Assembly (NCBI GenBank): GCA_951406725.2
Contig: OX597816.1
Coordinates: forward strand, 175,398,001 to 175,462,000
DNA length: 64,000 nucleotides
From: Octopus vulgaris
Taxonomy: Eukaryota
Reading direction: 5' to 3'
Part shown: piece by piece, positions 8,496-33,869 of the stretch
Position numbering within the stretch: the first letter of the stretch is position 1
Layout of the letters: each line of letters starts with the position of its first letter
Translations under genes and position numbers: made by a program
Notes under the pieces: generated by a model
Told to the model about the DNA's origin: nothing
Seen by the model: the letters and a program-made list of their open reading frames with translations, nothing else
Database searches by the model: none

Positions 8496-8610
8496 TATTT
8501 TACAGTGCATGCTTCAAATTCATATCCTGTCTCCCTTCTTCACACCATGCGTCTCTCCACTTTAAACCACATCTCTCTTCTTTGCACTGTGCCTCTTCTT
8601 TACACCGCCC

Positions 8611-10567: not shown

Positions 10568-10747
10568 GAATGGATGACTTGGCAGCGGTGTGCTAATTAT
10601 CTGATTTATAGAGGTGTTTCAAGAATTAAGTGTGTTGAATTATTACAGTCGATTATTTACTATCTTACTCGGGAAGGTCTTATTAACATTGGTTTGCTGC
10701 ATGATCCACCAACTAGCTTATTGCTACCAAATGTAAACTATGAAAAT
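10568..10747 (+). CDS. KDM1B: KDM1B exon (SWIRM C-part)
   Basis: tgtag| EWMTWQRC...RGVSRIKCV...YLTREGLINIG...YEN |gtaagt. Confidence 0.92.
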
Positions 10748-10766
10748 GTAAGTGTCATTCAATTTA

Positions 10767-10910
10767 CTATAGCTTTCGCCAGCACACACACGTTTTGGGA
10801 AACAGCATGTAACGCAAACACTACAGAGCAACAATCCTATAGCTTTCGCCAGCACACACACGTTTTGGGAAACAGCATGTAACGCAAACACTACAGAACA
10901 ACAATCCTAT
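10767..10910. repeat. 70-bp tandem duplication
   Basis: Two copies, one mismatch, ctat at the junctions. Confidence 0.95.
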
Positions 10911-11503
10911 TCCAGCACTAAGAAACAATTTTTTAAAATTATGACATTAAAATAATTATAAAAATAAAGTTGGTATTTATATGAAAATTCTTAAAAATCA
11001 ATTAAGAGAAAGAAGAGAGTTTAAATTTGGGCAGATCTGATGGTGTCATCTAGTAGTTATGATGATACATATTTGATGGTTACATTGTGAAGAATAGCAT
11101 GTGTTTAGGTAAAAGCTTATAAAGATTGATACAACATACACAACATAAAATCAAGAAGGGAAAAAGAATGGGTAATTAAAGTAAATTGCATGTTTTACAA
11201 ATATTAAAACTATCAAATATCCAGTAAAAATGAGAGAAAGTAGAGCAAAATTATTCTCCCAGAAATACTGTTTCTTATTTATACAAGCATAAGACAACAT
11301 AGAAACAATGAAATTGTATACTTTACAAATGCTAAATATCTAACAAGAATGAGAGAATATATCACCAAATTGATCTCTCAGAAGTACCTGCTAGTTGCAT
11401 CCAGTTTTAAGATGTAATTTCAAATCTTGTAGTTGTCAATATATCTCTTTTCAGTTTATTATCTCTTGTTGGATTCTAATTCAATATCTTTTTTGTGTTA
11501 CAG

Positions 11504-11578
11504 CATTCAGTTATTGTGGTTGGGGCTGGCATTACTGGACTAGCAGCAGCGAGACAGTTATCTAATTTTGGAGTGAAG
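11504..11578 (+). CDS. KDM1B: KDM1B exon (FAD-binding GxGxxG)
   Basis: tacag| HSVIVVGAGITGLAAARQLSNFGVK |gttagt. Confidence 0.95.
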
Positions 11579-11937
11579 GTTAGTTCTGAATCCTTTAGCA
11601 TTTAAACTGGCCATCTCTGGCCAAAATATTTTCTGTCTGCTTTACATTCAGACTAACTGGCTCTGGCTTCTCATACCTACCCTATAATGTCATTCTAAAA
11701 ATAGTCACATTATCAAAATCTTGAAGCTACAACACAATTCATGATTAATTCAAAACAACGTGAATGAATAAACAGCATATTTAACAGAATAACTTTTGAA
11801 TGCAAAAAGATTAAAGTATTTCTTTTCAGTTGATATCTTTGCTACAGGCGTCTGCGTTAGTCACCGACAAAGGCAGGATTCACATAAATACCACTGATTT
11901 AATCTAACTTTAACCAGTATTATTATCTTAATATATA

Positions 11938-12125
11938 GCGTTAGGAAGGGCATTGGCGTTAGGAAGGGCATGGCGTTAGGAAGGGCATCCAGCCGTAGAA
12001 ACACTGCCAGATTTGACTGGGCCTGATGAAGCCTTCTGGCTTCACAGACCCCAGTAGAACCGTCCAACCCATGCTAGCATGGAAAACGGACGCTAAACGA
12101 TGATGATGATGATGATGATGATGAT
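11938..12125 (+). mobile_element. 5'-truncated RTE tail
   Basis: aaccgtccaacccatgctagcatgg...aaacga(tga)n; similar tails at ~1310, 13057, 28625, 13950(-), 35220(-), 48388(-). Confidence 0.75.
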
Positions 12126-12663
12126 AGGTGCAAGCGTGGCCGTGGGGTTATGGAATTTGCTTCCCAGTCACATAGTTTCAAGTTCAGTCCCATTGCATGG
12201 CACCTTGACTGACCAAAACCTTGTGAGTTGATCTGGTAGACAGAAACTGAAAGAAGCCTGTTGTGTGTGTGATTGTGTTTCCATGCCTGGACATTGTGTA
12301 ATAGTTGTAAATGGGTGTCATAGTCATTCATTTCCAATATTTTGTAATGTGTTGCATGAGGCTGTTTGATAAGAAGAGCACTGAGGATTTGATGGGGATG
12401 CTGGGGTTGGAAGAATCAGTGGAACGGCTGGCAAGGGTGAATGGAGTTTGGTGGTATGTGCATGTGTTGAGGAGGGGTGAGGAGCATGTTCTGAAGAGGA
12501 TACGGTAAAGAGTTTGAGGTAAATGGACAACAAAGACAACATTGTTTTTATTCCAAAGGAATAAACGATGTAAAATAATATCTTCTCATCAGGAAAGAAA
12601 GAGAACCTATCTCAACAAAAAGACATTATAACAAATTAGATGACTGCATAAATGATCATCTAA

Positions 12664-12719
<56 letters not shown>

Positions 12720-14878
12720 CATACATACACAATAGGCTTTTTTCAGTTGCTATCTACAAAATCCATTAATAAGGCTTTAGACAGTCTGGGCCATGCAGTG
12801 GGACTGAACCCAAAAACCACATTGATTGGGAAGCAAGCTTCTTAATCACTCACCCACACTTGTGCCTATTTTAATGGTTTCAGTCATAGGACTTTGCCTA
12901 TGCTGGAGCATAGCAAATCAAAAACACTTAATGTAGAACAGAAATTAGATTCATTCGTTATTCTTCCTATTCAACTCCCCATAAAGCCATTGTTGTTTAG
13001 CTCCAGGTCGTCTCTGATTAAGTAGACCTTCAATTAAAGATTTTCTAGTTATTCCCATGTAAAAAGTGCCATTTGAATGTGGCTGATGCCAGTGCCACCT
13101 GACTGGCTCCCATGCCAGTGGCACGTAAAAAGCACCCACTACACTCTCGGAGTGGCTGATGTTAGGAAGGGCATCCAGCTGTAGAAATCATGCCAAATCA
13201 GACTGATGCTGCCAGTTCTCAGTCAAACCGTCTAACCCAGACCAGCATGGAAAGTGGACGTTAAACGATGATGATAATAACCCATCCCATTTTTTTTCTT
13301 TTTTGCATAACACTAGATTAATTTGTCTTTCATTATTTTTAATGTGTTATTTGATGGAGATTTGGTTGCTATTTCTAGCATTTTGAGCAGCCATAAAGAT
13401 GTACTGTTTCGCTGGACTTTATTTGTTTCATTTTTTTTTAAAACTCTGAACATAGCAAAAATACGTGGTTGTGTAAAGAAAGATGATGGTGACTAAGAGT
13501 TGATAAGACAGATCCAAGTAGGAGAAATGGGCTGGATAAACAAGGAAAGCCTGGAGAAGACAATTTGGGGGGCATTTTCAAGTTGACCTTTGAAATGTTG
13601 TCTCACATAATTGACTCTGAAATAAATTACAGCCTTTAAAATATGTAATTTGGTCTGATTGTTATAAATGATGAACAACCTTAGAATGTGTGTGTGTGTG
13701 CGCCTATGTGACAGACAGACAGACAGTGTGTGTGTGACAGCAGTTGCACAGGATTCAGAGAGAAACAGATTGACACTTTTTTTTTTTTTTTTTTGCTGAC
13801 ATAGAGTTTTTGAAAGCCTGGATATTGATGGAACCCTTTAAAGATCTTTAAACTGTTATGAGACTGCCTCTCATCCTATGCTATAAAGCTTCATTTTAAG
13901 GCATGCATCATAATTTCGTGTAAGAAACTTTTGTTCAGCTAGGTTCTAATCATCATCATCATCATTTAACGTCCATTTTCCATGCAAGCATGGATTGGAC
14001 AGTTTGACCAGAGCTGGAGAACTGCATCAGGTTCCAGTCTGATTTCACTTGGTTTCTATGGTTAGGTGTCCCTTCCTAATGCTAACCATTTTACAGTGTG
14101 TGCTAGATGCTTTTAATGTGGCATAAGCACATTGATATAGCATTGGTATAAGTGCTTTTTATGTGGCCCCAGCACAGTACTCTTACAGGCCAATCCTATT
14201 CACCAAGGGGATCTGGCCTGAATATTTCTGTAGTGGCAGATGGGTCTTCTTGAGTACAGCAAGGCACCAGGTGTCTCGGTCTTTTGTCATTTCATCCAAA
14301 AGTTTAGCGTCCTGAGGTGGTCATCCTAACAAGCACCAACTTTAATAATGTAGAAGTTATTTTTTACTATATTCCTTGAAATTGGTGATTAATTTCAAAA
14401 TTAATAAAAGCACATAGTGTATTTCAGCAAAACTGTGGTTGTAAAAGTGTTAAGTTTATATAAGAATTAAGATGAAATTAAAAGACTTCATGAGAAATGG
14501 TAAGACATTTGAAATTTATGACATACACTGTGATAACTGCCTGTAAACATTATAACAATGAGTGTTGATGATAGATTTCTCTACTGTCTGGATTTTCTTT
14601 CATTCAATTCATATTTTTATAAGACTTTTATAAGTTGTTTATAAATATCCTTTAATTGTAGCCTCAAGCAGCTGTATCTTATCAACGTAGATCTTCACCT
14701 TTTTCAAATGTTTACACTATGAAGTGACTTACATTATTATCTGAATTATATAAACTTGAAACCAATGACTGTAAATTCTTGCAAATAAATTGTTGTATTT
14801 TTGATATCACTTAAGACTTTATATTAATTTATATCTTATTTCTATTTTCTGATTAATATTTTTCTTTTTACTGATCAG

Positions 14879-15016
14879 GTGACTGTATTGGAGGCTCAGA
14901 ACTGTTTAGGAGGCAGGGTTGATGAAGCAAGTAATATTGGAGATATGTGTTTGGGCCAAGGAACTCAAATAATCAACAACTGTGTTAATAACCCAATTTG
15001 TTTGATGTGCATGCAG
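14879..15016 (+). CDS. KDM1B: KDM1B exon (GG motif)
   Basis: atcag| VTVLEAQNCLGGRV...GQGTQIINNCVNNPICLMCMQ |gtgagt. Confidence 0.93.
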
Positions 15017-16175
15017 GTGAGTTTGTGGCTTTGATCAACAGGGAAAAAGCAATTACTATCTCGCCAGTCCAGTTGCATTAGTATATGTGGTTATCATTTT
15101 TAGCATTTTTTTTTTTTTAGTTTCATGGATGACACGTTAACTTTTTATTTATAAATGAAATGTTAAACCTTGGTTCAATCATTCTATTGTTCCCTTAGCT
15201 ATGACACATGTGTTTTTGCTTTGATTATTTTGTTAGATATTTATCACTCTCATTTTCCTATAGATAATAAGAAGGGGCAGCTATCTGTAAAACACTGCTT
15301 CAAACAGTTCCTGCAAGCAAATAGATTCTAAATTCCAACCCTTGTTATCATAATATAAAAGTTTTCTAAAGTGTGAGTAGATTTTAAAGGTTTTAGCTTA
15401 ACTTTGGTTTCATGGCATCAAGAATTAGAGTTTAATGCTGGTTTTGTGGGATTATGGTTGGTTTGATTCAGGCCTTATGACATTAGGGTTAGAACATAGT
15501 GCTGGTCTTTTGACATTAAACATATGGAAAAAATATATCTTCTACAGATATAATGCTAATCTGTTACAGGCAACAATTCCAGATAATCCAACAGGTTTGA
15601 AAATTGAGATATGTAGAATTATGACACTGCCCCATTGCACTATAATGCAACCCATTCTACACATATGCACACATGAAACTATAAGTTTGTGGTTGAATAT
15701 CATAGCTATTTCAGTTTCAGCCTATATTAGTATGACAAATATGGAAACTTTAAGAAATGTGTATTGGAGGAAATATGGTTTCTCTTTCCATCCTATCAAA
15801 GGCACTTTTAATATCTGAACATACTGTATGGGAGCTGATATTTTTAACTTTGGTGATTACTGGTTTACATCTAGTATTTAATTTAGCATTTCATTCTTTT
15901 GTGATCAGTAATATAAGCTGCAGTAATATTCTGACAGCAAATAGATTTGGCTCTTCTCTGGAGAAAAATGTGTCTCTGCCCTCCTTGTTGCTGCAGAAGC
16001 TGTTAATCAACACCAGCCACTCTGATTTGGTATTCTCTGTTTGCCATGGGTTTCAACCAGAAATTTACTAAGCTAACAAAACGTCTTGCAGATAAGATTA
16101 ACCATAGAATATATTTAAAACGAAAACCTTTCATAAGTAGTGAGAAAGTGTAGATTTTGAATATTTTATTTTCAG

Positions 16176-16347
16176 GCAGACATAGATATGAAAATTATTC
16201 GAGACAAATATGAATTAATCTTTGAAAATGGTCAGCTGGCACTGCCAGAATCTTGTCGCCGGTTGAATTTCCACTTTAATGCTATTCTCGATGTTATTGC
16301 TGAATGGAGGAAAGATAATGCTTTGGCAAAAGATACAGGCTTATTAA
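16176..16347 (+). CDS. KDM1B: KDM1B exon
   Basis: ttcag| ADIDMKIIRDK...RRLNFHFNAILDVIAEWRKD...TGLL |gtaagt. Confidence 0.93.
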
Positions 16348-17905
16348 GTAAGTACATTTGTTACAAGTGTTTCCCATGTTGAATAGTCTGCATAATTTAT
16401 TTATATGCTTTAGCTTATATTTAATTTGGTTCTTAGCCCCAGAGTGAACTCCTATCTTCACAAAACTTTTCAATTTCTTCCTATCTCAATGAAAATCCCT
16501 TGGACCCTCCTATTTGCTGGTCTTTTGCACTCCTAATATCTCAAAGTTGATGGGAAGGTGACAGTCATTAAAAGAACACCTCCAACACCTTAAATTCCTC
16601 TCCTTCTTCAAAGACCATCAATAACTTCTGGAGACCTACAGCAATAATCTTCTGGAGACCTGCTCTCCTGTGTCACTCACTAATGGACCTTCACTCTTGA
16701 AAAATTTAATAAGAACATATGTATTTACATGACATGTCTGGAATGCAAATCTCCTAGCTAGACTAGGCTTCATTATCTCTTGGCTAGGGTGCTTTCAGTC
16801 AGATCACACCATGATGTTATGTAATGATTAAGCCTTCTCTCTGACCCATACTTTTGCAACCCATAGTTTGCCCCATGGTTTCATTTCAGTCTTCCACACT
16901 TTTATATAAACAACCTATTTGAAATTTCCTCTTGCGGTGCTGCTGACTGCAGATGATTTGACCTGTCACTCCTCTCCAACTGTCTGTGTTCAAGTGTCAT
17001 CTCCATGTCAACTCGGTGCTATACGCCATATCTATACCGACCCCGTGCATAAAACCCTCAAAAGCATTCTCCGATGAGGCCATATCAATCTTCTCTCCAT
17101 CAACAATAAACAAAAATATAATCACTACACCTCACTCAAAAAAGTTTTAGGCCTCACCACCACCACCAATAAAGATCTCTCTTGCTGCTCTCTTAGCATC
17201 AACTTAGCAAAGACTACATCACAAGGACTGATCTTTCTTCTGGGGCTCCTCCTTAACTACTTACTCTACAAAGCTTAAGTGAGGACTACAATAATGGAGT
17301 GCTAAAAGCCCATCTCCAAAGAAGGTTACCTTACCTTAAGCCTGCTACTACGGTGGCTGCTGTTCCCAAGAGTTGGGTGGTGTCATGCCACATGCACTTA
17401 GGCCCTCCTAACTTATTTGCCTCTTTCTCTTCTTTTCATCACTCATATTATGTCCTTTCCATCACTGCACTAACCACATCACCCAGTCCTTTCTCCCCAA
17501 CAGGCCCTTGAAATCCCATCCTGCCCAGTTCTTTCCAGTAATTATTCAAGAGGAACATGAATTCTATCAATCTCACCAATCAGAGAGATCCCATTAAGAC
17601 TGTTGGTACAGCTCTTACAGTTCCTTTCTCCAGATCAAACCATTAAAGAAACCCATTTAAGTTTAGTAATAAATTTTTGTGTTCAGAATTTGTTTTGGTT
17701 TTACGTATTTTTAAAGCAACTTTATTGTTTTCTTTCTTCAACAGTGATGACATTAACCTTTTACGGTGACTCCACATATTTTTTTTTTTTTTATATTACA
17801 TAAGACAGCATCACAAAACCTATTCCCCTTTAGGGTCAGGAAATATTCCCAACCTGAACAGCAGTTAGTTAAAATATGACCAGTACCGATACATTTCCTA
17901 TACAG

Positions 17906-17939
<34 letters not shown>

Positions 17940-18461
17940 ATTCTTGAAAGGATCTAAGGAAAATGTTCCTGTCAACCTCTATCCTCTCTCTCTTTCCGCA
18001 CCATTTCTGTTTCTCTGAACCTACTGATTCTGTACACCACCTAAAACAACTGCAATTCCTTCACCTCACCTGTTTCTGCCCTTCCTAATATACATTATTT
18101 TTTCAGTCCTGTACCAAACATTTCGGCAGATATTTTTTCCAAGAACTGCTTCTCTGTTTAGTTTCCAACCCTGCCACAATCCAACCTGAAAATTAACCAC
18201 ATTCTTATTCTTTAGTTTCAGAAAGGTGTCAGACATATTGTCTTTTTGTTTTCTCTCCTCCCCCCCCCATTAATTAAAAGCTAATACAGATCACATGCTA
18301 TCATTCAATACTCAGATATTTCTTGGGTTCCTTCTAAATATTACATCTTTCGTATACTTTTATTTTAGGTTCTTTATTAAAATGAAAATTATACAAGTTG
18401 CACATTTATACATAAACGCACATATATATATTTCTTTTACTGTAGTTTTGTGTTGTTACAG

Positions 18462-18520
18462 GCAAGTTTCGAGAAGCCCATGACCAATTTTTGGAGCAGT
18501 CCCAAATAGAATTTTCTCTG
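18462..18520 (+). CDS. KDM1B: KDM1B exon
   Basis: tacag| KFREAHDQFLEQSQIEFSL |gtgaga; phases match neighbours. Confidence 0.85.
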
Positions 18521-19226
18521 GTGAGATATTCAGATTCTTTAAAACTAATTTTGAAATCAGAAATATCTTTTGATATTTCTGCTTGTCTCCGTGTTTCTGC
18601 CTTCAAATGTTGAACCCATTTGACCCTGGTGCAGGCATGGCTTTGGTTTTAAGAACCTTGCTTTGCAACCATGTACTTACAAGTTCAGTTCCATTGCTCC
18701 TTGCATAAATGCCTTCTACTTTGGCTGATCAATGCCTTGGGAGTGAATTTGGTATGTGGAAGCCCATCATATACACATATATATATATGTGTCTTTCTGT
18801 TTTTGTTTGTCCCCACCCCATGCTTGACAACTGGGGGTGGGGGTGTTAACGTCCCTGTAACAAGTACCACACTTAAAATGTAAATACTGGGGTGGAATTA
18901 TTCCACTGAACCCTTCAAGGCAATGCCTCAGGATGGTTGCAGTCCAATAACTAAATCAAAAGATAAAAGATGGAATGAAATTGAAGAGATAATTGAAATC
19001 TTTAACATTAATGAAATAATTTCATGTGTTTTGCTTTAAGCAATCTTTTTAACTATGAAATGGAACTGAAGAGGTCATCAGATTCTTTAATATAACAAAG
19101 CATTATTATGAAGATTTATGAATGTATTTATCAAAATAGAAATGAGAAAATTTATAAAACATAAATTTCTTGTTAGTCTCTACTTTGCTGGTACCAAGTC
19201 ATCCTCAAGTTGTTTTCATCTAGAAT

Positions 19227-19580
19227 TACTCTTTTACTCTTTTACTTGTTTCAGTCATTTGACTGCGGCCATGCTGGAGCACCGCCTTTAGTCGAGCAAA
19301 TCGACCCCGGGACTTATTCTTTGTAAGCCCAGTACTTATTCTATTGGTCTCTTTTGCCGAACCGCTAATGCTAGAGGGACAAACACAGACACACACACAT
19401 ATATATACATATATACGACAGGCTTCTTTCAGTTTCCGTCTACCAAATCCACTCACAAGGTATTGGTCGGCCCGGGGCTATAGCAGAAGACACTTGCCCA
19501 AGATGCCACACAGTGGGACTGAACCCGGAACCATGTGGTTTGTTAGCAAGCTACTTACCACACAGCCACTCCTGTGCCTA
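19227..19580 (-). mobile_element. SINE family A
   Basis: Reverse complement of 386-786 / 21292-21670. Confidence 0.8.
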
Positions 19581-19975
19581 ATTAAAATACTTATTTTTAT
19601 AATCATCATCTAATACCTACTAACTTAAATTGTAATCACTTACCTAAAGTTACAGCATTGGGTCAGGTTTCTTGGTCACCATATTCTTTAATTTGTACTT
19701 CTTATAACACAGCAAATAAATTCCATAGTTGAATATCGAATGGTTTTCTATGGATTTGAACCATTTTTATTCAACATGGAGACTGAACAAGGGTGGGATG
19801 TGCCTTACATAACGTCAGTTAACCATTCACCATATTTATACTCTTCACATACACATACAATCCTCAGTTTCCCAAAGCTGAATTTTGTAATACAGTGTAA
19901 TATTTCTTAAATGTTTGAGATATGCTAATTTGCTCACAACTTCTGAAATTTAAATCTCATATTTATATATATATA

Positions 19976-20010
<35 letters not shown>

Positions 20011-20039
20011 GTAAAATAATATGTGACAATTATTCAATA

Positions 20040-20109
20040 GCCAAGATAAACCTCTGAGTTTCGGATGCTGAGGTGGAAATCTACAACACCATCTCTTCGG
20101 TTATCTGGC
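20040..20109 (-). ncRNA. Degenerate type I hammerhead-ribozyme-like motif
   Basis: GCCAGAUAA-CCGAAGA-stem II-GAAA-CUCAGAG-GU-UUAUCUUGGC; U16.1 is G. Confidence 0.45.
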
Positions 20110-20197
20110 CATCTGAAAAACGCTATGAAAAAAAAAATTTCCTCTATTTACATAATATTGAGGTCTCTTTCTTTCTTTTATTATCTTACCGTTTTTA

Positions 20198-20268
<71 letters not shown>

Positions 20269-20460
20269 GTATGTATATAAAATCAGAGTGGTACAACAAG
20301 GCACCAATATTCACTGGAAAATAGCAATCGATACAAATACAATGCTATTGTAAAGCTTCACTGCGTATATACTGGCAAAGACGTGTGTGTGCAACAAACA
20401 TGAAAAATTTGTCTTGCCTCTAGGAAGAACATTTGATAAATGGACAACTCAGAATCGGAT

Positions 20461-20533
20461 AATGCAGGACCGGTTTCTGATTCTTCAAATACGTTTGACA
20501 AGGTAAATTTGATCGGTCTTCATCAGCTGCATT
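20461..20533 (-). ncRNA. Type I hammerhead-ribozyme-like motif
   Basis: AAUGCAG-CUGAUGA-(42 nt)-GAAA-CCG-GUC-CUGCAUU; 7-bp stem I, full core, GUC triplet. Confidence 0.65.
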
Positions 20534-20671
20534 TACCTAGACAATATTTCAGATGTTGCCACATCAATGCCAGTATACTTGCCTGAACACCTAACCATTG
20601 ACAGAATGAGAACAGTGAAAAAGTATTTATATCAGCAAAAGACTTTATTCCTTATCCAATGCCCTACATGT

Positions 20672-20958
20672 CGCCGTTTTCAAGCCTAGCCAGGCTCATG
20701 GGCCCAGTTTCCCGGTTTCTGTGGCATATGTGTTCCCCCCAGCTGGACAGGACGCCAGTCCATTGCAGCATTACTCAAGAAACAGGAAGAGAGAGTGAGA
20801 GAAAGTTGTGGCGGAAGAGTACAACAGGGGTCGCCACCACCCCCTGCCGGAGCCTCGTGGAGCTTTAGATGTTTTCGCTCAATAAACACACACAACGCCC
20901 GGTCTGGGAATCGAAACCGCGAGTCCACTGCCCTAACCACTGGGCCATTGCACCCCCA
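20672..20958 (-). mobile_element. tRNA-derived SINE, family C
   Basis: Perfect 15-bp TSD caatgccctacatgt (20657-20671, 20959-20973); tRNA-like head. Confidence 0.85.
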
Positions 20959-21291
20959 CAATGCCCTACATGTACCAACCTTAAATGTTAACCATACATG
21001 ACCAATCCTTCTCAGTTCCTATATTTTAAAGGAGCTGTGAACATTCAACCTTTCGTCCCAATCATTCATGTTCTTCCCATATTGTAAAACACAACTGAAA
21101 CTCAGGCCATAGAAATTATTGTGAATACTCATTATGATGAAATATTTTGAAACTCTGCTGTTCAATCTATTTTGTGTGAGTGCATGTTTATGTGCACATG
21201 CTGAGTGCATGTTTATGTGCACATGCACACATACAGGCACACAGTTGTCTTATTACACAAAATTTTGAAATTTGTTTAAAGAATTATATAT

Positions 21292-21670
21292 AGGCGCAGG
21301 AGTGGCTGTGTGGTAAGTAGCTTGCTTGTCAACCACATGATTCCGGGCTCAGTCCCACCTTGGGCAGGTGTCTTCTACTATAGCCTCAGCCTGACCAAAG
21401 TCTTGTGAGTGGATTTGGTAGACGGAAACTGAAAAGAAGCTCGTCGTATATATATATATATATATGTGTGCGTGTATATGTTTGTTTGTCCCCCCAACAT
21501 CGCTTGACAACCGATGCTGGTGTGTTTACGTCCCCGTAACTTAGCAGTTCGGCAAAAGAGACCGATAGAATAAGTACTAGGCTTCCAAAGAATAAGTCCT
21601 GGGGTCGATTTGCTTGACTAAAGCCGGTGCTCCAGCATGGTCACAGTCAAATGAATGAAACAAGTAAGAG
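21292..21670 (+). mobile_element. SINE family A
   Basis: Full-length homolog of 386-786. Confidence 0.8.
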
Positions 21671-22045
21671 TTTGAACCAAATCCTTTTAAAAATAAAAAT
21701 ATTTTAGGATATTTTTTCTGATTTAAACCTGGATGAAATAACTTAAGTCTCACTTTCCAGTGGTGCTTTCCCACTGAACAAGTTTTGCCTGTCGTTTTTT
21801 TTTTATTTTCTACTCAAAGTAATTGATACTCTTATTCAAGTTAATCTGTGTCACTTTATTAGGTTAGGTGTGGCTGTGTGGTAAGAAGCTAGCTTCCCAA
21901 CCACATGGTTTCGAGTTCAGTCTCACTGCATGGCACCTTGGGCACGTATCTTCTACTATGGCCTTGGGCTGACCAAAGCCTTGTGAGTGGATCTGGTAGA
22001 CAGAAACTGAAAGAAGCCTGGCATGTATATATATATATATGTGTA

Positions 22046-24418
22046 TGAGGACCAAAGAGCTGAGGTATTTCGGATTACCAGACAGTGTGTCAGAGAAAAT
22101 AGTGATGTTACAGGAGAGAAATGTGTCTGCATGGATGATGGGGCACTTGCTTTTAATGTTGGTGAAAAGAAAGAGGCTTGGAGAAGCCATTATGAAAGAC
22201 TGCTGAACGAGGAGAATGAATGGGAGGAGGAGAGCCTGCCAAATGTTGACCCAGTAGAGGGACCAGCTACCCGAATAGACAGCTCCCTTGTAGATAAGGC
22301 AATTAAGGATATGAAACCAGGCAAAGCCCCCGGCCCATCAGGAATCACTGCTGAGATGCTTAAAACAGCTGGTTATGTGGGCTATGGCCTAGTCACCCGC
22401 ATTGTAAACCAGGTAGTTCACAATGGAGTCATACCCAATGACTGGCGCAGCAGCACCATAGTCAACTGCTACAAGGGTAAGGGTGATGCTCTAGATAGAA
22501 ATAACTACAGGGGTATCAAACTGTTGGACCAGGTGATGAAGGTCTCAGAGAGGGTCATAACCCATCTCATTAGGGAGAGAATTTGCTTAGATGCGGTTTT
22601 GTACCAGGTAGAAGCACCACTGATGCTATATTCCTGGTCCGACAACTGCAGGAGAAGTACCTAGCTAAAGATAGACCCCTCTACATAGCTTTTGTGGACT
22701 TGGAGAAAGCCTTTGACAGGGTTCCCCGTTCCCTTATCTGGTGGTCGATGTGGAAACTGGAGATTGACGAATGGCTAATAAGGGCTGTACAGGCTCTATA
22801 CAGAGAGGCTGTCAGCAAGGTTAGGATTGGCAACGAATATAGTGAAGAATTCCAGGTAGAAGTAGGTGTGCACCAGGGCTCAGCCCTCAGTCCCCTTTTA
22901 TTCATCATAGTCCTCCAGGCAATAACAGAGAAATTCAAAACGGGATGCCCCTGGAAGCTCCTCTATGCTGATGACCTAGCTCTCATAGCAGAATCACTAC
23001 CGGAACTAGAAAAGAAATTTCGGGTGTGGAAGCAAGGGTTAGAATCAAAGGGCCTTAGAGTAAATGTAGCAAAAAACCAAAGTAATAGTAAGCAGCAAGG
23101 CGTACTCAGCACACACCCCCTCGGGTAGGTGGCCCTGCTCAATCTGTAGGAAAGGTACAGGTAGAAACTCCATAAGATGCACCCAATGTAAGCTATGGAC
23201 GCATAAGAGGTGCAGCAACATTAAAGGGAAATTAACAGATAAGATAGCTTTCATGTGCAGCAGATGCACAGGGGCAATAGACACAACAGACACTCAGAAA
23301 ACAGATTCCATCACACTCCAGGGAGAGAAACTAGAAGTAGTTGATAGTTTCCGCTACCTGGGTGACCAAGTTAGTAGCGGAGGTGGATGCACAGAGAGTA
23401 TCACCACTAGAATACGAATAGCCTGGGCAAAGTTCAGAAAGCTCCTACCCCTACTGGCGACAAAGGGTCTCTCCCTCAGAGCGAAAGGTAGATTGTATGA
23501 TGCATGTGTGCGAACTGCCATGCTTCACGGTAATGAAACATGGGCTGTGACTGCAGAGGACATGCGTAGACTTGAAAGAAATGAAGCTAGCATGATCCGC
23601 TGGATGTGTAGTGTCAGTGTGCACGCACGACAGAGTGTAAGCACCCTGAGAGAAATGCTGGATATAAGAAGCATCAGATGTGGTGTGCAAGAGCGACGCT
23701 TGCGATGGTATGATCATGTGCTGCAGATGGATGAAGAGAGATGTGTGAAGAAGTGCCACTCCCAAACAGTTGAAGGTATCAGGGGGAGAGGTAGACCCAG
23801 GAAGACATGGGATGAGGTAGTCAAGCATGACCTCAGCATTGGGCCTCACTGAGGCAATGGCGAAGGACCGAGATCTCTGGAGATATGCTGTGACTGCAAA
23901 GACCCGGGCTGCTTCCTGTATCAGTTCCACATAGCCCCTGCCCATTCAAAGTACCCCGGATCCCAGATAGTCCTGCTGTGCCTGAGGAGATCTGTTGAGT
24001 CAAGTACATGAACATGAACGTCGAAATAAATATCAATGGAAATAGGAGTTATGATGCCTGTGCCGGTGGCACATAAAAAGTACTATCCGAACGTGGCCGA
24101 TGCCAGCGCTGCCCCGACTGGACTCTGTGCCGGTAAGACCATCCGAACGTTGCTAGCCCCGCCTTAGCTGGCTCCCGTGCCACTGGCACGTTAAAAGCTC
24201 GAACCGATCGTGACCGATGCCGGACCCCCCGGCCCCTGTGCAGGTGGCACGTAAAAAGCACCCACTCCACTCGCGGAAATAAAAAATAAAGCCGTAGAAA
24301 CTCTGCCAGATCAGACTGGAGCCTGGAGCGGCCCCTGGCTTCCCAGACCCCGGTCGAACCGTCCAACCCGTGCTAGCGCGGAAAACGGACGTTAAACGAT
24401 GATGATGATGATGATGAT
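22046..24418 (+). mobile_element. 5'-truncated RTE-clade LINE (frameshifted RT) nested in a family A SINE
   Basis: KAPGPSGI, NYRGIKLL, FVDLEKAFD, GVHQGSALSP, YADD, FRYLG, RGRGRPRKTW; (GAT)n tail; SINE halves at ~21865-22045 and ~24419-24560. Confidence 0.93.
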
Positions 24419-24856
24419 ATATATTTGTGTGTGTCTTTGTCCCCCCATCACTGCTTGATGACCAGTGTTGGTGTGTTTACATCCCCATAGCTTCGCAGTT
24501 TGGCAAAGAGACCAGTGCAATAAGTACTAGGCTTTAGACTATTAGTCCTGAGGGTGATTTATTCAATTAAAAAAAAAGCATTTAAGATCATTGTCTCAAT
24601 TTGATCTAAATTCTCAAAACCGTTTCTTTATTTTCTTGTATTCTAGTCAAGACTTCGAATCAGAAATAAAAGAAACAATAAGCTAAGGATGACTTTTGTT
24701 GTGTGAAGTTTTTCACTAGACAAACTTTTTTTAAAGGAAATAAGGAATTAATGATTTAAATGCTCCAAAATCAATATGAAATGTTTTGTGTTACTGTGTT
24801 TATGGAATTATCATTGGCTATTATTTGACTATTATTTTTTTTTTTTTTTACTTTAG

Positions 24857-25057
24857 GACGAAGAAAAGATCCTTGAGTATTATCTGGGTCACATGGAGTT
24901 GGTCAGTGGTTGCAGTGTTGAAGATTTATCATCAATGCATTGGGATCAACATGAAGCTTTTCCTCAGCTCGGCAGCTCCAGCATAATGTTATGTCAAGGA
25001 CTATCAGAACTATTATGTCTTCTCTCTAAAGATTTAGATATTCAATATAATGTTGAG
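24857..25057 (+). CDS. KDM1B: KDM1B exon
   Basis: tttag| DEEKILEYYLGHMELVSG...WDQHEAFPQ...DLDIQYNVE |gtctgt. Confidence 0.9.
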
Positions 25058-26171
25058 GTCTGTGGATATTTTCTTTAGAAATAATTCTTTTTCTGGGATC
25101 AGGTGTGATGGTGTGAGTAAGAAGTGGTTTGGAGTTCAGTGCCTCTGTGTGGTACCTTGAGCGAGTGGCTTCTACTCTACCCCAGTATTAAGCAAAGCCT
25201 TGTGGAGAGATAAAAAATTAAGTAAATCAATAAAACAAAATATCTTCTCTGATTATAACCAGAAAGGATGAAAGTCAAAATAGATTTGCTGAGAGCAACT
25301 TTACCTTCCATCCTGGTCAAGTTCTGGGGTTGATAATACCAGCTAAATTCCTTTCTCCTAATTTCAGGCCTTATGCCTATGCTAGAAACACCTATTAAAT
25401 TTATAGGTACCAGCATGGCTATTTGGTTGAGAAGTTTTCTTCACAACTATATGGTTTTGAGTTCAGTCCCACTGTCTGGCACCTTAGTCAAATGTTTTCT
25501 ACTACAACCCCAAGTCAACCAAAGCCCTGTGAGAGAATTTGGTAAACAGGAACTAAAAGAACCCCATTGTGTGTGTGTGTGAGTGAATGGGCTTGTATTT
25601 CTTTGTAAGCAAAGGGTTCATTCATACAGTGTCATTTGTTTCCAGTCCTTGGCATTAAATATGTCCAGGCTGCTTGTTATTTGTTAGACTGAGAGATTGT
25701 TATCCCACTTGGAAACAAGAAGGTCATTCAGCCAAAGAAAACCCTGTTCCAACATACATATCCGACCCATGCATGCATGGAAAATTAGACATTAAAATGA
25801 TGAACAAGTTATGCTAACAAGTGGGTTGGCTTGTGTAAATTTAAATGTTTATAGATGACTTGCTGGTCCAAGAGGGCATCTGTCCCATTCTACAGCTAAC
25901 TCCTCCCTCATGAAGCGGAAATCATACTTATTTTACAGCTAAGTAGACAAAAGCAAACAGTAACTAAGTTTGAAGTTATGTCTTTGTGGTCAACGTAAAT
26001 AAGGATTTAGCAGATAAGCATAAATAAGGATTTAGAGTTGATTAGCATTAGTGACCATTTATAGGAATGGTCACTCAGTAAAACTTAATATGAATGTACG
26101 TTTTGTAGGAATGGGGGTTCATACAAATATTAAATTTGCTTAACTTTGACTAAAACCTCTTTGGCTTTCAG

Positions 26172-26246
26172 GTTGTAAAGATTGACTATAGTGAAGCTGA
26201 TGTGATGGTGCATGCATCATCTGGAGCTGTTTTCCGAGCCAATAAG
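26172..26246 (+). CDS. KDM1B: KDM1B exon
   Basis: ttcag| VVKIDYSEADVMVHASSGAVFRANK |gtctgt. Confidence 0.88.
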
Positions 26247-26317
26247 GTCTGTTCAATCACACTTTATGACTTATTAGCGTTTTAAGTTAATTAGAGTCAA
26301 CATTTCTAATTATTTAA

Positions 26318-26536
26318 CCCTTTAGTATTTAAACCGGCCATATCCGGCCAAAATATTTAATCTGTTTTATGTTCAAACTGACCAGATCCAGGCTCTCACA
26401 CCTACCCTACAATGTTATTCTACATTAGGTAATTACACCATCAAGATCTTGAAGATATGAGATAATGCATGATTAATTCAAATCAATGGGAATCAATAAG
26501 CATTATGTTTGATAGAATAATCTGAACACTAAAGGG
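26318..26536. mobile_element. piggyBac-like MITE
   Basis: TTAA|ccctttag ... ctaaaggg|TTAA; relatives at ~4635, 11590, 48335, 51553, 58770. Confidence 0.75.
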
Positions 26537-27630
26537 TTAATCGTTATTTATGTTTAATTACAGTTATTTGTAGCACTTTTGATTCTCAACTTCAAATAGT
26601 TAATGTTGCCTTCTCTCTCTCTCTCTCTCTCTTTCAATAATTAGACTCATCTAAATTGACTGGGCAAAGCAGTCAGCTGGGACCCTAGGAGAGAGGGATC
26701 AAATTATGATAGGTTAAAATGTCAAAATGTGTTTGGTTAATGCTAAAGTGGTAGATTAGAAAAATTGATAGAACAAATACCAAAATGCCTTTTAGTATTT
26801 ATTAGTATTTGGTTACGTTGCTTTACATTTTGAGTTCAAATCCTACTCCTTATCGAGTTTGCTTTTCATCCTTACTAGGTTGTAATTGAGAATAGAAGTT
26901 TTTTTTTTAAAGTTGAAAATTTTTAATTTTTTTAATTTTTACCCATTCACCAGACATCTTTGACTTTTAAAGCTATAAAATGGTCAACATTTAGTTGTTG
27001 TTTTTTGTGGAACAGCTTCAATAATGACAGTTAGTTATTGTCCATTGAAGGTCATCATCAACCTTTGCCATCTTCAAGTATCATCTTTAATTAGTAATTA
27101 ATGGTTGTTACTAACAAACAATACTCGAACTCCTACCTGTTCAGATTAGAGTTTTGTTACCTGGAGCACAAAGCTATTCATTCTCTACATTAATTATAAA
27201 AACATTATAGCATGTAATGTAGAGTAAATTACTCAGAGATGCTTTTGTATGAGAAGAAGTTAGAATCAGATTGACATATTTAATACAAGGAAAATTACAA
27301 AGCTAGTTAGAAATATTTATACTGAGAGAATATAAGAAAACATGTAATCAATGACTGACAACTCTTGACTTGTTTCAGTCTTATTATAAACTTATTAGCA
27401 AATCAATAGATTTCACTGTACCTGCCAAAGTAGTGATAGGAGGGTCTATCAGTAAATATAGTGGTTAACTTTTGCCAGGCTTGTAATATTTATTTTCCCT
27501 TCAACTTTACATTGTTAATAGCTTCCCATTTTCTCTCTATTATATAAAGCAACATAATTAGATACACAAAACGCAACCACAGAAACATTAGTATGTAAAG
27601 TAAATTGTTTTTTTTTTTCTACATTACCAG

Positions 27631-27747
27631 GTGTTGGTTACAGTTCCCTTATCTGTGTTACAAAAAGATGTTATTGATTTTGTGCCTCATCTGCCAGTAG
27701 AGAAAACTAAAGCAATTAAGTCGCTTGGTGCTGGTGTTATTGAAATG
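27631..27747 (+). CDS. KDM1B: KDM1B exon (ends at catalytic Lys position, here Met)
   Basis: accag| VLVTVPLSVLQKDVIDFVPHLPVEKTKAIKSLGAGVIEM |gtaagt. Confidence 0.94.
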
Positions 27748-28324
27748 GTAAGTCTTGAGAATTAGAATTCTTTTTAATGTTTCTTGCAAAGTAGGTGGGT
27801 GGGTGCAGAATCCTTTGAAGGATGAACAAAATTCCTTGTGGTATTTCTTTACATCTATAAGAAAACGAGAATTAACATTGAAGTTGTTATTATTTAACCC
27901 CAGTCAGAGATATAGCTGCTATTTCTGTAAGGCTGAGTGAGCACATAGAGCAGAGATTCTCAACATGGGAGGTACCACTCCCAAGGTGGTGCTGGGTATG
28001 TTGAAGGGGATGTTAACCCTCAGAGGGCTGTGAGGTGGGGATGGGGCAATGAGGTAACATAACCTACTAGTTTTGTCTTTTTCATGCTTTAGCTGATTAC
28101 TGCCTGTGTGTCTGTATGTCTGTCTGTCTGTGTGAGGAAATATCAGTTGACTGTGACCAGCAGTTCTTTGGATCTTTGACTCAAAGCAGTGTGTGTGTGA
28201 TTTACAGTAGAGTTTTGTTAACAAGGTTCTAAATTGGTGAATCCAATTGTTTATTTTTGTTGTTTGTAGATTTTTAGCTGAAATGTTTCCAAGTTTCTAA
28301 ACTGTTGCTGTTGTTGTTGTTCAG

Positions 28325-28453
28325 ATTGTTTTGCAGTTCAAGAAGAACTTTTGGCGTGAGAAGGTGAAAGATGTTGATGTCTTTGGTTATATTGCCTCTG
28401 ATGAAAGCTGCCGGGGGCTGTTCAGTGTGTTCTATGATCTCTCAAAAGTCCAG
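28325..28453 (+). CDS. KDM1B: KDM1B exon
   Basis: ttcag| IVLQFKKNFWREKV...RGLFSVFYDLSKVQ |gtgaga. Confidence 0.93.
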
Positions 28454-28624
28454 GTGAGAATCAAGAAATTGTTCAACGTCAATTTTTAATCTTTTTTTAT
28501 ATATCCATCATTTTCCATAATTTTAGACCTTGGAGACATTTTTATTTAAATCTTGTTTTTGCATTGTTAAGCATTTCATTATTTTCAATATTGAGTCTGG
28601 ATAAATATTTTACTTTAAACATAC

Positions 28625-28782
28625 ACTCACGGAGTGGTTGACGTTAGGAAGGGCATCCAGCTGTAGAAACACTGCCAGATCTGACTGGCCTGGTGCAGCC
28701 TTCGGGCTTGCCAGACCCCAGTTGAACCGTCCAACCCATGCTAGCATGGAAAGCGGACGTTAAACGATGATGATGATGATGA
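28625..28782 (+). mobile_element. 5'-truncated RTE tail
   Basis: Same 3' end and (GAT)n tail as the RTE at 22046-24418. Confidence 0.75.
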
Positions 28783-28872
28783 TACATACATACACACTGA
28801 CACACACACACACACACATGCAATTTCTTGTATTAATTGTACTTTTTTACTTCCTATTCTGTCCCTTGTCAG

Positions 28873-29004
28873 AAATCTGGCAAAGAGACTCACGTTTTAG
28901 TGACCTATATTGCTGGGAATGGTCTGAAAAAAGTGATGGGTAAATCAAGTGAAGAAATTGTACAAGCGTGTATGGATGTCTTGAGTAAGCTGTTCCCAGA
29001 ACAG
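28873..29004 (+). CDS. KDM1B: KDM1B exon
   Basis: gtcag| KSGKETHVLVTYIAG...CMDVLSKLFPEQ |gttagt. Confidence 0.92.
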
Positions 29005-30539
29005 GTTAGTATTTATATTTAAATTAAGTTTAATATACATGTATGTGTATGTTTACTCCTCCCAGCATGGTTCCAGAGTCAACCCTTCCATGTGACATCT
29101 TGGGCAAATGTCTTCTATAACTCCAGACTAACCAAAGTCTTATAAGTGGATTTGGTAGATGAAAACTAGAAAAAAAATGCTTTAATATATGAAAGAAGGT
29201 TTGAAAATGCAATTTTAAAAGATGTTTATTTACTTTACCGGTTTCACTTTTTAGAAAAATATTGTCAAAAGTAACATGTAAAAGTTTGGTTGTGTTAATT
29301 ATTGGTTGTCACAAAATGCTACAATACATATATACATTCTTTGGTAACAAGAACATGTTAAGAACATAAAAAAGTTTAACAAGTTCATTAAAATATTGGA
29401 CACAAAAGATTACAACATATATATACATTCTCAAGAAAATGTTAAAGACAGTTTCCAGAAAGAATTATTAAAAAGTTCAGTGGAATATTGGTATTGTATC
29501 TGTATATATATACACACAGAATATTATAAGTTCAAAAAAGTTTACATTATAGTAGTAGGGAAGCTCAAACTGACCTGGTCCACCATGTTATCGTAAAAGA
29601 CTCCTGGTATATATATATATATATACCAGGTCAGGTTAAAATTAAAATGCATACACAGCAACTATAGGCAAATAGAAACATTGGTACCAAATACAGGCAG
29701 AAAGATATTCAGGTTATGTATACAATTAATTGAACCCTACTGAGTTTATTACTAGCTCTGGGGTGAATCCAGAAATGCACAATGAAGGTTGTGAAATCAC
29801 TAAATACGCACTTGCCATGGACTTTGGAAAATTGTTAAATGTTCCTAATATTGTGGTTTGTGTACTCATCTGAAGATGTTTTTTTTTTTATATAATGATA
29901 TGATTTATCCATTAATCAATTAACAAGAATTCAGTGAGAAGTCTTCTGTAAAAAATATTTCTGGTCATGGGGAAATATGTCACTTATCAAAAGATGAAGA
30001 TTAGTGTCAAAGAGGCATTCTGCCATAGAAAAATCTGTCTCAGCAAATTCTAATCAACCTATGTGAACATGAAAATGACAATGATTTATACACATATCTC
30101 AAAATTTATGTTTACTTTTCCACCCCAGCATGAGTTGAAAGTGTCTTTCATTCATCATGGTCCTTTTTCATAGGATACATGCAGAAACATAATTGTTCTT
30201 GTTATTCATGTCATACTTTTGCTATAGTTTTTTTTTTTTTTTTTTGTTTTTTGTTTTGACACCTCGGTGTCCTTGCTATCACCAACTACTTTACAGCATG
30301 CACTGAGTGCATTTAATGCCACCGCTATCGGAGCGGTTTCCTCCATCAAAACTGAAGAGTCCTTCCTGTATGTCACTGACTGGATCGGTCTATCTAACTG
30401 CTTGCAGTGGTGGACCTCTTGTTACTTAATGTAAAGGAGGTAATCTTTGTTTAGCCCTGTCCTCTGTTCATAGAGCAGCCAACCTATTATCAAAGGCATT
30501 CAGAAAGACAAAGTATGTAGAGATGCTTTTAAGATGGCA

Positions 30540-32385
30540 AGATGTGATTTAAGGAGGTTATGGTTTTCGTTCCCACATTGAGGAAGGAACCAGGCTGCTG
30601 AAGTTCTGCGATGCAAATGATCTTATGTTTTTTAATACTAACTTCAGGAAACCTGCCAGCTACCTATTCACCTGCTGATTTAGTAGACACACTAGTCAAA
30701 TTGACTACACCTTCACCAGGAAACAGAAAAGATGGCTACTTATAAGTGCCAAAACTTTTCCAGGTGAAGAATGCACCCCACAACATAGATTAGTAGTTAG
30801 CAACTTCAAGATCAGGGCTAAATGGATGCCCAGAAGACGACCAACATGGAGAAGAAGGGTCTAGAAGCTTAAGGATCCTGCAAATGGACAGAGATTTAGA
30901 GACGTATTACTCGAAGCCTTAGATGAAATAGAGGGAGATATAGCATCAGATAATGTGGAAGACAACTGGAGGTTTCTACGGGACAACCTGCTGAGAGCCA
31001 CTGTCCAGATCTGTGGCTGGTGCAAAGTCCCCTCAAGACCCAAAATAACGTGGTGGTGGAACAATATTGTTGACAGGGCTATTAGACAAAAGAAACAAGC
31101 TTGGAAGGACTGGAAGAACGGTGGGAGCAGGGAAGTGTATCAGACTGCCAGAAGGGAAGCTAGGAGACAGGTATATTTAGCCAGAGGGGAAGCAGATAAG
31201 AAAAAATTTGCCAATGTTCTGTGCTGTGAGGACAAAAGACTTGAGGTATTTCGTGTTGCAAGACAGTGTGTGAGAGAGAATCGTGGCGTGGTAGGAGAGA
31301 AATGTGTTCGCAAGGATGACGGTTCACTTGCGCTAAATGAGGCTGCAAAGAGAGAGGTTTGGAGATGCCACTATGAAAGGTTGCTAAATTAAGAGAATGA
31401 ATGGGAGAAAGAGAGTCTGCCAAATGTCGACCCAATAGAGGGACCAGCTATCTGAATTGACAGTACCTTGATAGATAAAGCAATTAAGAGTATGAAGACA
31501 GGGTAAGCCCCCGGCACATCAGGAATCACTGCAGAGATGCTTGAAATATCTGGCAGTGTCAGCTGTAATCTAGTCACCCGTATAGTCAATTTCTGGTAAG
31601 ACAGCTGCAGGAGAAATACCTAGCCAGAGATAAGCCTCTGTTCTTAACCTTCGTTGACATGGAGAAAGCTTTTGACAGAGTACCCCAATCCCTTGTCTGG
31701 TGGTCAATGCGGAAACTAGGGATAGATGAATGGTTAGCGAGAGCTGTACAAGCCATGTACAGGGATGCTGTCAGTAAGATGAGGGTTGGCAATGAGTACA
31801 GTTAAGAATTCCAGGTAGGGGTCCACCAAGGATCAGTCCTCAGACCCCTCCTATTTATCATAGTCTTCCAGGCAATAACAGAGGAATTCAAGACAGGATA
31901 TCCCTGGGAGCTCCTCTATGCTGATGACCTTGCTCTAATTGCTGTGTCACTATCAGAACTGGAGAAGTTTCAGGTAAGGAAGCAAGTATTAGAATCGAAG
32001 GGCCTTAGAGTCAACTTAGCTAAAACCAAAGTCTTAATAAGTAGGAAGGTAGACAAACGATAAGTCCCTTCAGGTAGATGGCCCTGCTCAATCTGTAGCA
32101 AAGGCATAGGTAGAAACTCCATAAGATGTTCCCAGTGTAAGCCATGGACACATAAGAGGTGCAGCAATATCAAAAGAAGGCTAACTAGGAAGATAGTTTT
32201 TGTGTGTGTCAAATGCTCAGGAGCAATAAACACTGAAAATGTGCAGAAAACAGCCTCCGTCACATTCCAGGGGAAAAAACTACAAGTAATTGATAGCTTC
32301 TGTTACCTATGTGACCAAGTCAGTAGTGGGGGTGGATGCTCTGAAAGTGTAGCTGCTAGAATAAGAATAGCCTGGGCAAAGTTCA
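30540..32385 (+). mobile_element. Degraded RTE LINE (endonuclease end, RT), internally deleted
   Basis: QIDY, QHRLVV, WWWN, DMEKAFD, YADD; stops and frameshifts; homologous to 22046-23435. Confidence 0.9.
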
Positions 32386-32434
32386 ATATTTTATCAGAAG
32401 AAAGTCTTTTCAAATATTCTTGTTTTGACTGCAG

Positions 32435-32587
32435 AAAATCCCAGAACCTGAGCAGTATTACACAAGTCACTGGCAGAAAGAAAGTTCCAATCGTATGTCT
32501 TACAGTTATGTCCCGGTTGGTGTAGACGCTTCTGTTTACACACACATTGCACAACAGCTCCATGACAAGATTTTTTTTGCTGGAGAA
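32435..32587 (+). CDS. KDM1B: KDM1B exon
   Basis: tgcag| KIPEPEQYYTSHW...MSYSYVPVG...KIFFAGE |gtaagt. Confidence 0.93.
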
Positions 32588-33776
32588 GTAAGTACTACAT
32601 TTTCATGTTGTGATAACCTTGTTTTTTTAAAAGATATTTGCCTAGTTTAACCCTATCATGATCCTATTTTCAATGAAATATACTGCCTGTGTGTGTGTTT
32701 CGATTAGTTTTTAAAATAATCAAGAATTTGGAAGATAAAGTAAAATAACATTTTCTATATTTATTTGTTGCTTGGGACAGAATTTAACAGAAGCTTCTTT
32801 CTAAAATTATGACAGAAGGTTTTAATTTAAATAAAAAAGGCAAGATTATTGCAGTAATAAGTTCAGTTATTGGGTGAAGGAGTGGGGACCAGGGATAAGG
32901 GAATAGCATTTTTAAGTTACAGGCCCTTAGATGGAGTGTGGAATATTGGTGCTTTGAAGTAATTAAATACAACAAACTCTCCTGTAAATTTAATTTTTGT
33001 TTTTCTTGACGATGCAGGCCTTAATCACTTTCTTTGACTTCTGGATGTTACTCTTACTTTAATATAAATATGAACACTTTATAGAATGGACGGTTTTGTG
33101 TTGTGCAGTCACAATTAGTTTCTCCCTGCTTTCCCATCTCCCACTTCGCTTTCGTAATCTCACAAACTCAACCCATCCACTCACCCTATCCAATCCGTGG
33201 CTCCACTTATATGCATTTCTCTGTAACTTGAATGGACCCATTCTTTACATCTTCAACATCTCCCCCACCTCTCTCTCCTTTACTGCAAGGCACCTATTTC
33301 TGACCCTTTGTTCATACCAGGGGGGCAGGCAGCTATACCAGTTAGTGTCTATCATAATCCAGTATCTTTATGATGCTATTTCTATTGAAACACATTACCT
33401 ATGTGTTTGAATTAATTTTAAAAATAATGAAAATATGGATAAATTTGGCATACTGGTTTTCTCAGAAATGCTTTTCATGTAGAATTATGATCCAAGGTTT
33501 CCATATGGATATTTAAAAATGAACAATTTTATCTCATAGAACTGGATGAACAGTCTTAGATTGGTTGCTGTCTAAAGATTTAAATCATTGTTACTTCCTT
33601 TATAAATAGTCTTTCATGAATAATTATGGACCAAAGTTTCAATTTAAATATGGACACCTGGAAACAAACAATTTTATAGCATAGAACTGATGGGGCAGTC
33701 TTAGCTTTGTAGGTATCAAATTATCGAGTTATTTCCTTTTATAAGTGGTTGCTAATTGTTTGAAAATCTATTTCAG

Positions 33777-33869
33777 GCCACCTGCCGGCAGTTTCCACAG
33801 TCACTGGCTGGTGCTTATTGGAGTGGATTAAGAGAGACTGAAACAATTCTGAAGTGTTTTGATCAATGA
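33777..33869 (+). CDS. KDM1B: KDM1B terminal coding exon
   Basis: ttcag| ATCRQFPQSLAGAYWSGLRETETILKCFDQ*. Confidence 0.92.
   Translation, partial: ATCRQFPQSLAGAYWSGLRETETILKCFDQ

Follow-up and report, generated by a model that had tools for sequence, protein, structure and literature searches.

Loss of the catalytic lysine from coleoid cephalopod KDM1B, a candidate pseudo-demethylase

We report that KDM1B (LSD2) of Octopus vulgaris carries methionine at the position of the catalytic lysine that faces flavin N5, and that this lysine is missing from all 10 coleoid KDM1B sequences in which the site is covered. The replacement had been noted in a preliminary description made from the DNA letters alone, and we found it to be real and wider than first noted. 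Because the surrounding substrate pocket has been rebuilt while the protein has stayed conserved, we propose that coleoid KDM1B is probably a pseudo-demethylase retained as a chromatin scaffold that turns over H3K4me1/2 little if at all.

The KDM1B locus and its methionine codon

The window, which is the whole 64,000-nucleotide stretch of DNA analyzed here (contig OX597816.1, positions 175,398,001 to 175,462,000), was modeled exon by exon and holds 16 of the 19 coding exons of KDM1B; the remaining three lie no more than 6.1 kb upstream of it.

912..33869, + strand: KDM1B/LSD2 gene, 16 of 19 coding exons
912-1137, 2744-2785, 5885-6056, 7606-7784, 10568-10747 and 11504-11578, + strand: first six KDM1B exons in the window
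14879-15016, 16176-16347, 18462-18520, 24857-25057, 26172-26246 and 27631-27747, + strand: next six exons
28325-28453, 28873-29004, 32435-32587 and 33777-33869, + strand: last four exons, including the stop codon
912..2785, + strand: exons for the CW zinc finger (residues 135-187)
7606..10747, + strand: exons for the linker and SWIRM domain (268-345)
27631..27747, + strand: exon for residues 606-644, 39 codons, ending in GAGVIEM
27745..27747, + strand: ATG for Met644 at the flavin-N5 lysine position, last codon of its exon and followed by a GT donor
27748..28324, + strand: 577-nt GT-AG intron, phase 0
28325..28453, + strand: exon for residues 645-687, starting with IVLQF

All 15 introns between the window exons are GT-AG, and the frame is open throughout, as had been described, yielding 713 residues and a stop. 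This product is the exact C-terminal part of P0003, the recorded O. vulgaris KDM1B (812 amino acids, with Met644), and adding the three upstream exons gave an exact match at 812/812 residues, although P0003 was not taken as independent because it is possibly derived from the same assembly. In the window sequence the exon does end in ATG followed by gtaagt, and the next exon does start with IVLQF. Alignment with solved chains, which has no gaps at the Met end of the exon, placed Met644 at human LSD2 K661, LSD1 K661 and maize polyamine oxidase (PAO) K300, in agreement with the preliminary description; human LSD2 K661 is residue 635 of the 4fwe chain, with the numbering offset of +26 inferred from construct length. 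Octopus KDM1A, which is canonical at six motifs, also has an intron directly after its lysine codon (AAG followed by gt), and K661 of mouse Lsd1 is likewise the last codon of its exon (PMC10444793), both of which support the positional match.

Four of the 24 listed sequencing runs were compared with the window over 27500-28610 as assembled contigs, in which rare variants and isoforms are invisible. The DNA-like run X2, from a different study, covered the interval in one contig with zero substitutions, its sole difference being an extra T within an intronic T-run. Two runs from two further studies, X8 and X13, which are not recorded as RNA and which we call RNA-like solely from exon joining, each gave one contig in which 27747 is joined to 28325 with no differing letter. 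Run X10, which bears another organism label, lacked coverage of the Met exon. The identical letters in three other runs largely refute an assembly error as the source of the ATG.

A splice form that supplies lysine was rejected, since the X8 and X13 contigs join the Met exon to the IVLQF exon and retain the Met codon, and no AG-AAR-GT micro-exon was found in the 577-nt intron; isoforms too rare to enter a contig would escape this check. Searches of the Octopus genome with the Met exon and with a Lys-bearing KDM1B, the latter under a stricter filter at first look, returned a single KDM1B locus, and a second copy was rejected as the source on these searches. The earlier argument that A-to-I editing cannot restore the lysine also stands, as the genetic code allows AUG to become only GUG.

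Distribution and remodeling of coleoid KDM1B

In an alignment of 134 proteins, lysine occupied the site in 120/120 non-cephalopod KDM1B rows, which are the best 120 of 320 matches and are vertebrate-heavy, and which include bivalves, limpets, snails, a nemertean, chelicerates and echinoderms. Four fragments miss the site; of the 10 coleoid rows covering it, nine have Met, namely O. vulgaris, O. sinensis, O. bimaculoides (with isoforms), Sepia pharaonis and three further Sepia-cluster rows, and Argonauta hians has Thr. Given the uniform lysine outside cephalopods, the Met is not a matter of chance. Across the wider KDM1 family (150 representatives at 50% identity, 8 without coverage of the site), lysine was present in 139/142, the others being one gap, the Argonauta Thr and a Gln in Tropilaelaps. 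In the comparison proposed in the preliminary description, the other Octopus species had Met and the bivalves Lys; Nautilus, vampire squid and the named squids had no KDM1B record among the matches listed. We infer that the lysine was lost before octopods and decapodiforms diverged, and a coleoid or a cephalopod stem both fit the sampling. A metagenome scan for cephalopod coding DNA gave one match, at 48%, and an ESM Atlas search returned KDM1 clusters only.

The coleoid protein is, by sequence, predicted fold and tree, a true KDM1B ortholog. Its Pfam domains (PF07496, PF04433 and PF01593) are colinear with human LSD2, with no tower, and an AlphaFold2 model (pTM 0.81) had 4gus as its best Foldseek match (E 1e-72), with TM scores of 0.84-0.85 on the query and 0.92 on the target. 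A quick IQ-TREE analysis, with SH-aLRT values only, a midpoint root and the KDM1A outgroup left out, placed a coleoid clade (100) within a mollusc-containing group (98). The nearest known system is human KDM1B/LSD2/AOF1 (PDB 4GUS/4FWE/4GU0), which has 43% identity and the same C4H2C2 and CW fingers, SWIRM domain and towerless amine oxidase domain. The coleoid rows differ from it in that K661 is not Lys (Met in octopus) and in that N542, L543, Y545, A546, C547, N562, F568 and G570, together with two acids, are replaced.

11522..11539, + strand: GxGxxG dinucleotide-binding motif, residues 372-377, intact
14909..14917, + strand: GGR flavin-binding motif, residues 401-403, intact in octopus and decapodiform-like rows
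16254..16268, + strand: C463 and N467, in place of the two acids that correspond to LSD1 D375 and E379, contacts of H3 Arg8
24890..24976, + strand: remodeled pocket segment with H525, M526, L528, V529, S530, V534, H545, L551 and S553; human LSD2 equivalents N542, L543, Y545, A546, C547, N562, F568 and G570; LSD1 equivalents N535, L536, F538, A539, N540 and D555
32501..32503, + strand: Tyr754, aligned with LSD2 Y767 and LSD1 Y761, the aromatic-cage Tyr, kept

Conserved columns were defined, leave-one-out, from 16 Lys-bearing lineages, with the divergent Tropilaelaps, P0164, P0168 and P0173 left out of the control set. All five coleoid rows differed at 22/188 of these columns. A position-blind scan, run with no prior site list, picked out the interval 495-553, where 10 of 20 successive conserved columns had changed (permutation p=0.0002), and these map to LSD1 N535, L536, F538, N540, D555 and their neighbors, with A539 changed to Val. 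With the Lys column excluded, 8/17 pocket columns were changed in all five coleoid rows versus 11/90 other oxidase-domain columns (Fisher P=0.0021), whereas the 16 control lineages had 0-5 of 17-18 pocket columns changed (P >= 0.18 each); an earlier pocket list that included the Lys column gave 8/15 versus 12/113. Both lists were based partly on general knowledge of LSD1 structure and were drawn up after the alignment had been seen, which makes the scan statistic the cleaner test. The coleoid stem is 0.6 changes per column long, and a long branch does not explain the pocket changes because the equally long stem of the heterobranch snails Arion and Biomphalaria changed 1/18 pocket columns. Two candidate coleoid losses, H555 and position 793, differ from vertebrates but vary among other molluscs and were not counted, and a cluster of chelicerate changes in the scan proved to be an artefact of mis-modeled C-termini in P0005 and P0007.

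Within the pocket Tyr754, W542, D543 and E546 are kept, the second aromatic-cage residue is Leu in coleoid rows, and there are two new conserved His residues (525 and 545); by alignment, no new conserved Lys or Arg was found in the listed pocket columns. Owenia also has Val at the A539 position and keeps its lysine, and A539 to Val is a far milder change than A539E. A structure of LSD1 E379K was present among the Foldseek matches. With both acidic residues and the stretch equivalent to F538, A539 and N540 changed, the pocket has probably lost its former hold on the H3 tail. Judged by acidic residues, aromatic cage and A539-type residue, with roles assigned partly from general background, the coleoid rows lack the conserved H3-tail pocket. 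At the level of sequence, coleoid KDM1B lacks two defining features of an active KDM1 demethylase, the lysine and this pocket. Sixteen of the 22 coleoid-wide changes are fixed, against a background of 287/452, which, with the Met common to Octopus and Sepia, argues for ordinary constraint on the new pocket rather than decay.

None of the 20 FAD-motif columns was changed in all coleoids. The motifs (GxGxxG, the acidic residue, GGR, AGE and the C-terminal GA..SG) are kept almost entirely in Octopus and in decapodiform-like rows, with a single change in Octopus, Ala to Thr at 419. Argonauta has ETQ in place of GGR and Ala in place of G794 in both of its gene models, yet the protein is still 82% identical overall, and 131/143 positions agree across its zinc-finger region. 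Residues 401-410 of the two Argonauta records, P0019 and P0306, partially resemble what the octopus exon would encode in its +1 frame, and the stretch may reflect a compensated double frameshift or a gene-model error. Zinc ligands are kept in both the CW finger and the upstream C4H2C2 finger.

Oxidase-domain identity was 347/452 between Octopus and the Sepia cluster and 338/443 between teleost and marsupial, with quick-tree distances of 0.28 versus 0.37; these splits are roughly 270 and 430 million years old, respectively. Divergence within the coleoid crown is slow. Octopods and Argonauta have more private changes than the decapodiform-like rows. As judged from the sequences, coleoid KDM1B is plainly under purifying selection. 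A catalytic residue has been lost from a gene that is conserved and, going by its spliced contigs, expressed, which is the sequence pattern of a pseudoenzyme. The earlier suggestion of a candidate pseudo-demethylase is strengthened by three further observations: the lysine is missing throughout the sampled coleoids, the pocket has changed along with it, and Argonauta has lost a flavin motif.

Possible functions of coleoid KDM1B

The Lys-water-N5 motif speeds flavin reoxidation by oxygen. Polyamine oxidases conserve it strictly (PMC7576179, PMC6341606), and it is lost in the laboratory mutants LSD1 K661A, LSD1 K661Q/A539E, maize PAO K300M and MAO A K305M, of which the last two carry the same Met change as octopus KDM1B. 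The coleoid change differs from these in being natural, in occurring in both octopods and decapodiforms, and in being accompanied by pocket remodeling. In MAO A K305M reoxidation by oxygen is blocked and kcat is 200-fold lower in vitro with substrate oxidation intact; the mutant turns over normally in cells without producing peroxide, and quinones reoxidize it (PMC8009472). The statement in the preliminary description that mutation of the lysine strongly impairs catalysis holds for MAO A turnover in vitro, but substrate oxidation there is not blocked, and Met alone would on this precedent predict an enzyme that is slow with oxygen and not dead. Its further statement that LSD1 K661A keeps some nucleosomal activity was correct, at about 20%, compared with about 5% for A539E (PMC9803847); the K661 and A539 double change abolished LSD1 activity in vitro (PMC10444793).

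We favor a scaffold as the probable role of coleoid KDM1B. Without the Lys-water-N5 link, reduced flavin would be reoxidized only slowly by oxygen, and loss of the acids equivalent to D375 and E379, along with replacement of Tyr-Ala-Cys by Leu-Val-Ser, would misplace the H3 tail and impair the first half-reaction on H3K4. FAD is predicted to be kept as a stabilizer of the scaffold, while flavin-dependent demethylation of H3K4 is likely left to the canonical KDM1A. Selection might now act on the fold, the zinc fingers and the partner surfaces, in line with the E3-ligase and demethylase-independent roles reported for human LSD2 (PMC11118440). Splicing may in part constrain the residue at the exon end, as the A and G there are common to AAG, ATG and ACG (the presumed Argonauta codon). 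Of the role first proposed, a low-activity scaffold or reader, the scaffold is favored, and a reader appears less likely given the changes at the D375, E379 and F538/A539/N540 equivalents. Because pocket residues have changed too, reverting Met to Lys would by itself probably not suffice as a control.

KDM1 proteins are needed beyond their activity in several systems, including Lsd1 and Lsd2 of S. pombe, LSD1 in mouse ES cells, which acts largely without catalysis (PMC10444793), and human LSD2 in E3-ligase function and repression. These proteins keep a working active site, whereas coleoid KDM1B appears to have given it up. Point mutants either keep nucleosomal activity or also disturb binding, which makes it hard to tell how far KDM1 biology depends on catalysis. 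A coleoid LSD2 that lacks the catalytic lysine, is constrained and stands beside an intact LSD1 would amount to a natural separation-of-function allele in an animal clade whose genome regulation is distinctive. In databases the coleoid proteins are named as ordinary demethylases, an annotation that would mislead.

A bolder and rather unlikely reading is that in stem coleoids the pocket was remodeled and the lysine that activates oxygen was given up, leaving a chromatin dehydrogenase that makes no peroxide or a protein that binds some new ligand. Argonauts would then have lost the flavin as well, so that one gene would present a natural series from enzyme to pseudoenzyme. A repurposed enzyme as such, meaning an FAD-binding amine oxidizer that acts as an oxygen-inert dehydrogenase (making no peroxide by DNA), on a new non-H3K4 substrate suited to the remodeled pocket, or both, is an unlikely alternative to the scaffold. 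It would account for the retention of FAD motifs in Octopus and the decapodiform-like rows and for the largely fixed new pocket residues, including the two His. A dehydrogenase, if true, would mean a histone-modifying flavoenzyme that works without generating peroxide. The quinone-reoxidized MAO A K305M offers a precedent, as does the NicA2/NctB lineage, in which Lys was replaced by Thr while the enzymes were dehydrogenases (bioRxiv 10.1101/2025.05.21.655333). The latter is a natural replacement within the same fold, but in bacterial enzymes with small-molecule substrates; NctB lacks the conserved Lys yet works as a fast oxidase, with a Lys at another position taking over, and no such compensating Lys is seen in coleoid KDM1B by alignment. 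Loss of GGR and G794 in Argonauta speaks against repurposing, and FAD may be retained for stability alone. We know of no nuclear electron acceptor for KDM1 enzymes, which also counts against it.

Residual H3K4me1/2 demethylation on nucleosomes, aided by NPAC and tuned down rather than off, seems to us rather improbable. The activity left in LSD1 K661A and A539E is in its favor, as are the retained Tyr754 and WD-x-x-E stretch and the presence in the genome of an NPAC/GLYR1-like dehydrogenase exon (L018, G000:C16:53391675-53391827; best PDB match human N-PAC). However, the lysine loss is joined by changes at the equivalents of N535, F538, A539, N540, D555, D375 and E379, and double hits abolish LSD1 activity; moreover, neither the LSD2-binding linker nor the PWWP exons of octopus NPAC were found near that exon, and the contig had no PWWP match.

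Normal activity, with the lysine provided by a splice variant, by editing, by another gene copy or by some compensating residue, is very unlikely, as is an error of assembly. NctB shows that a lysine elsewhere can substitute, the contigs would conceal rare isoforms, and the genome search used a stricter filter at first, but the letters agree in three other runs, spliced records of other species carry Met, and there is no micro-exon, one locus and no new pocket Lys by alignment, so that the error and splicing versions are largely refuted. Slow decay towards a pseudogene, which the private changes of octopods and Argonauta might suggest, is scarcely credible given the open frame in every record covering the site, the Octopus-Sepia identity, the kept zinc ligands and the spliced contigs.

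We found no published report of lysine loss in cephalopod LSD2 in a search that covered subscription journals and primary LSD2 structure papers poorly, and three reviews (PMC13632499, PMC4316176, PMC5066116) added nothing on the lysine. The only cephalopod KDM1B literature found describes its up-regulation in heat-stressed Octopus maya testis.

Other KDM1B-like proteins and neighboring elements

A single KDM1B record from Tropilaelaps mercedesae (P0179) has Gln at the catalytic lysine and 11/17 conserved pocket columns changed, and is an independent candidate; the Gln alone proves little, as MAO A K305Q is active. Three KDM1B-like Logan proteins, P0164, P0173 and P0168, keep the lysine, have Gly, Gly and Phe, respectively, at the cage Tyr, and have lost 7-11 pocket columns. 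Two of them, P0164 and P0173, cluster with chelicerates, and all three are possibly further pseudo-demethylases. Several KDM1B-like records of Menidia menidia (P0142-P0148 and P0058) lie on different contigs, which suggests an expansion of KDM1B in this species.

Elsewhere in the window, a cytoplasmic asparaginyl-tRNA synthetase gene (41292-61514, - strand) is convergent with KDM1B, and its last exon matches human AsnRS with an E of 5e-22. A Tc1/mariner transposase remnant (54049-54780; HTH_Tnp_Tc3_2 and DDE_3) is followed by reverse-transcriptase-like frames (54803-55868) that have no Pfam match. The KDM1B introns hold a C-rich tandem repeat with strong GC skew (8560-9170) and broken LINE-type retroelement copies on the + strand at 22011-23852, with RVT_1 and a PHD-like finger, and at 30865-32525, adjoining the KDM1B exon at 32435. 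A 13-bp tandem repeat (~34290-34380) lies ~430 bases past the KDM1B stop codon.
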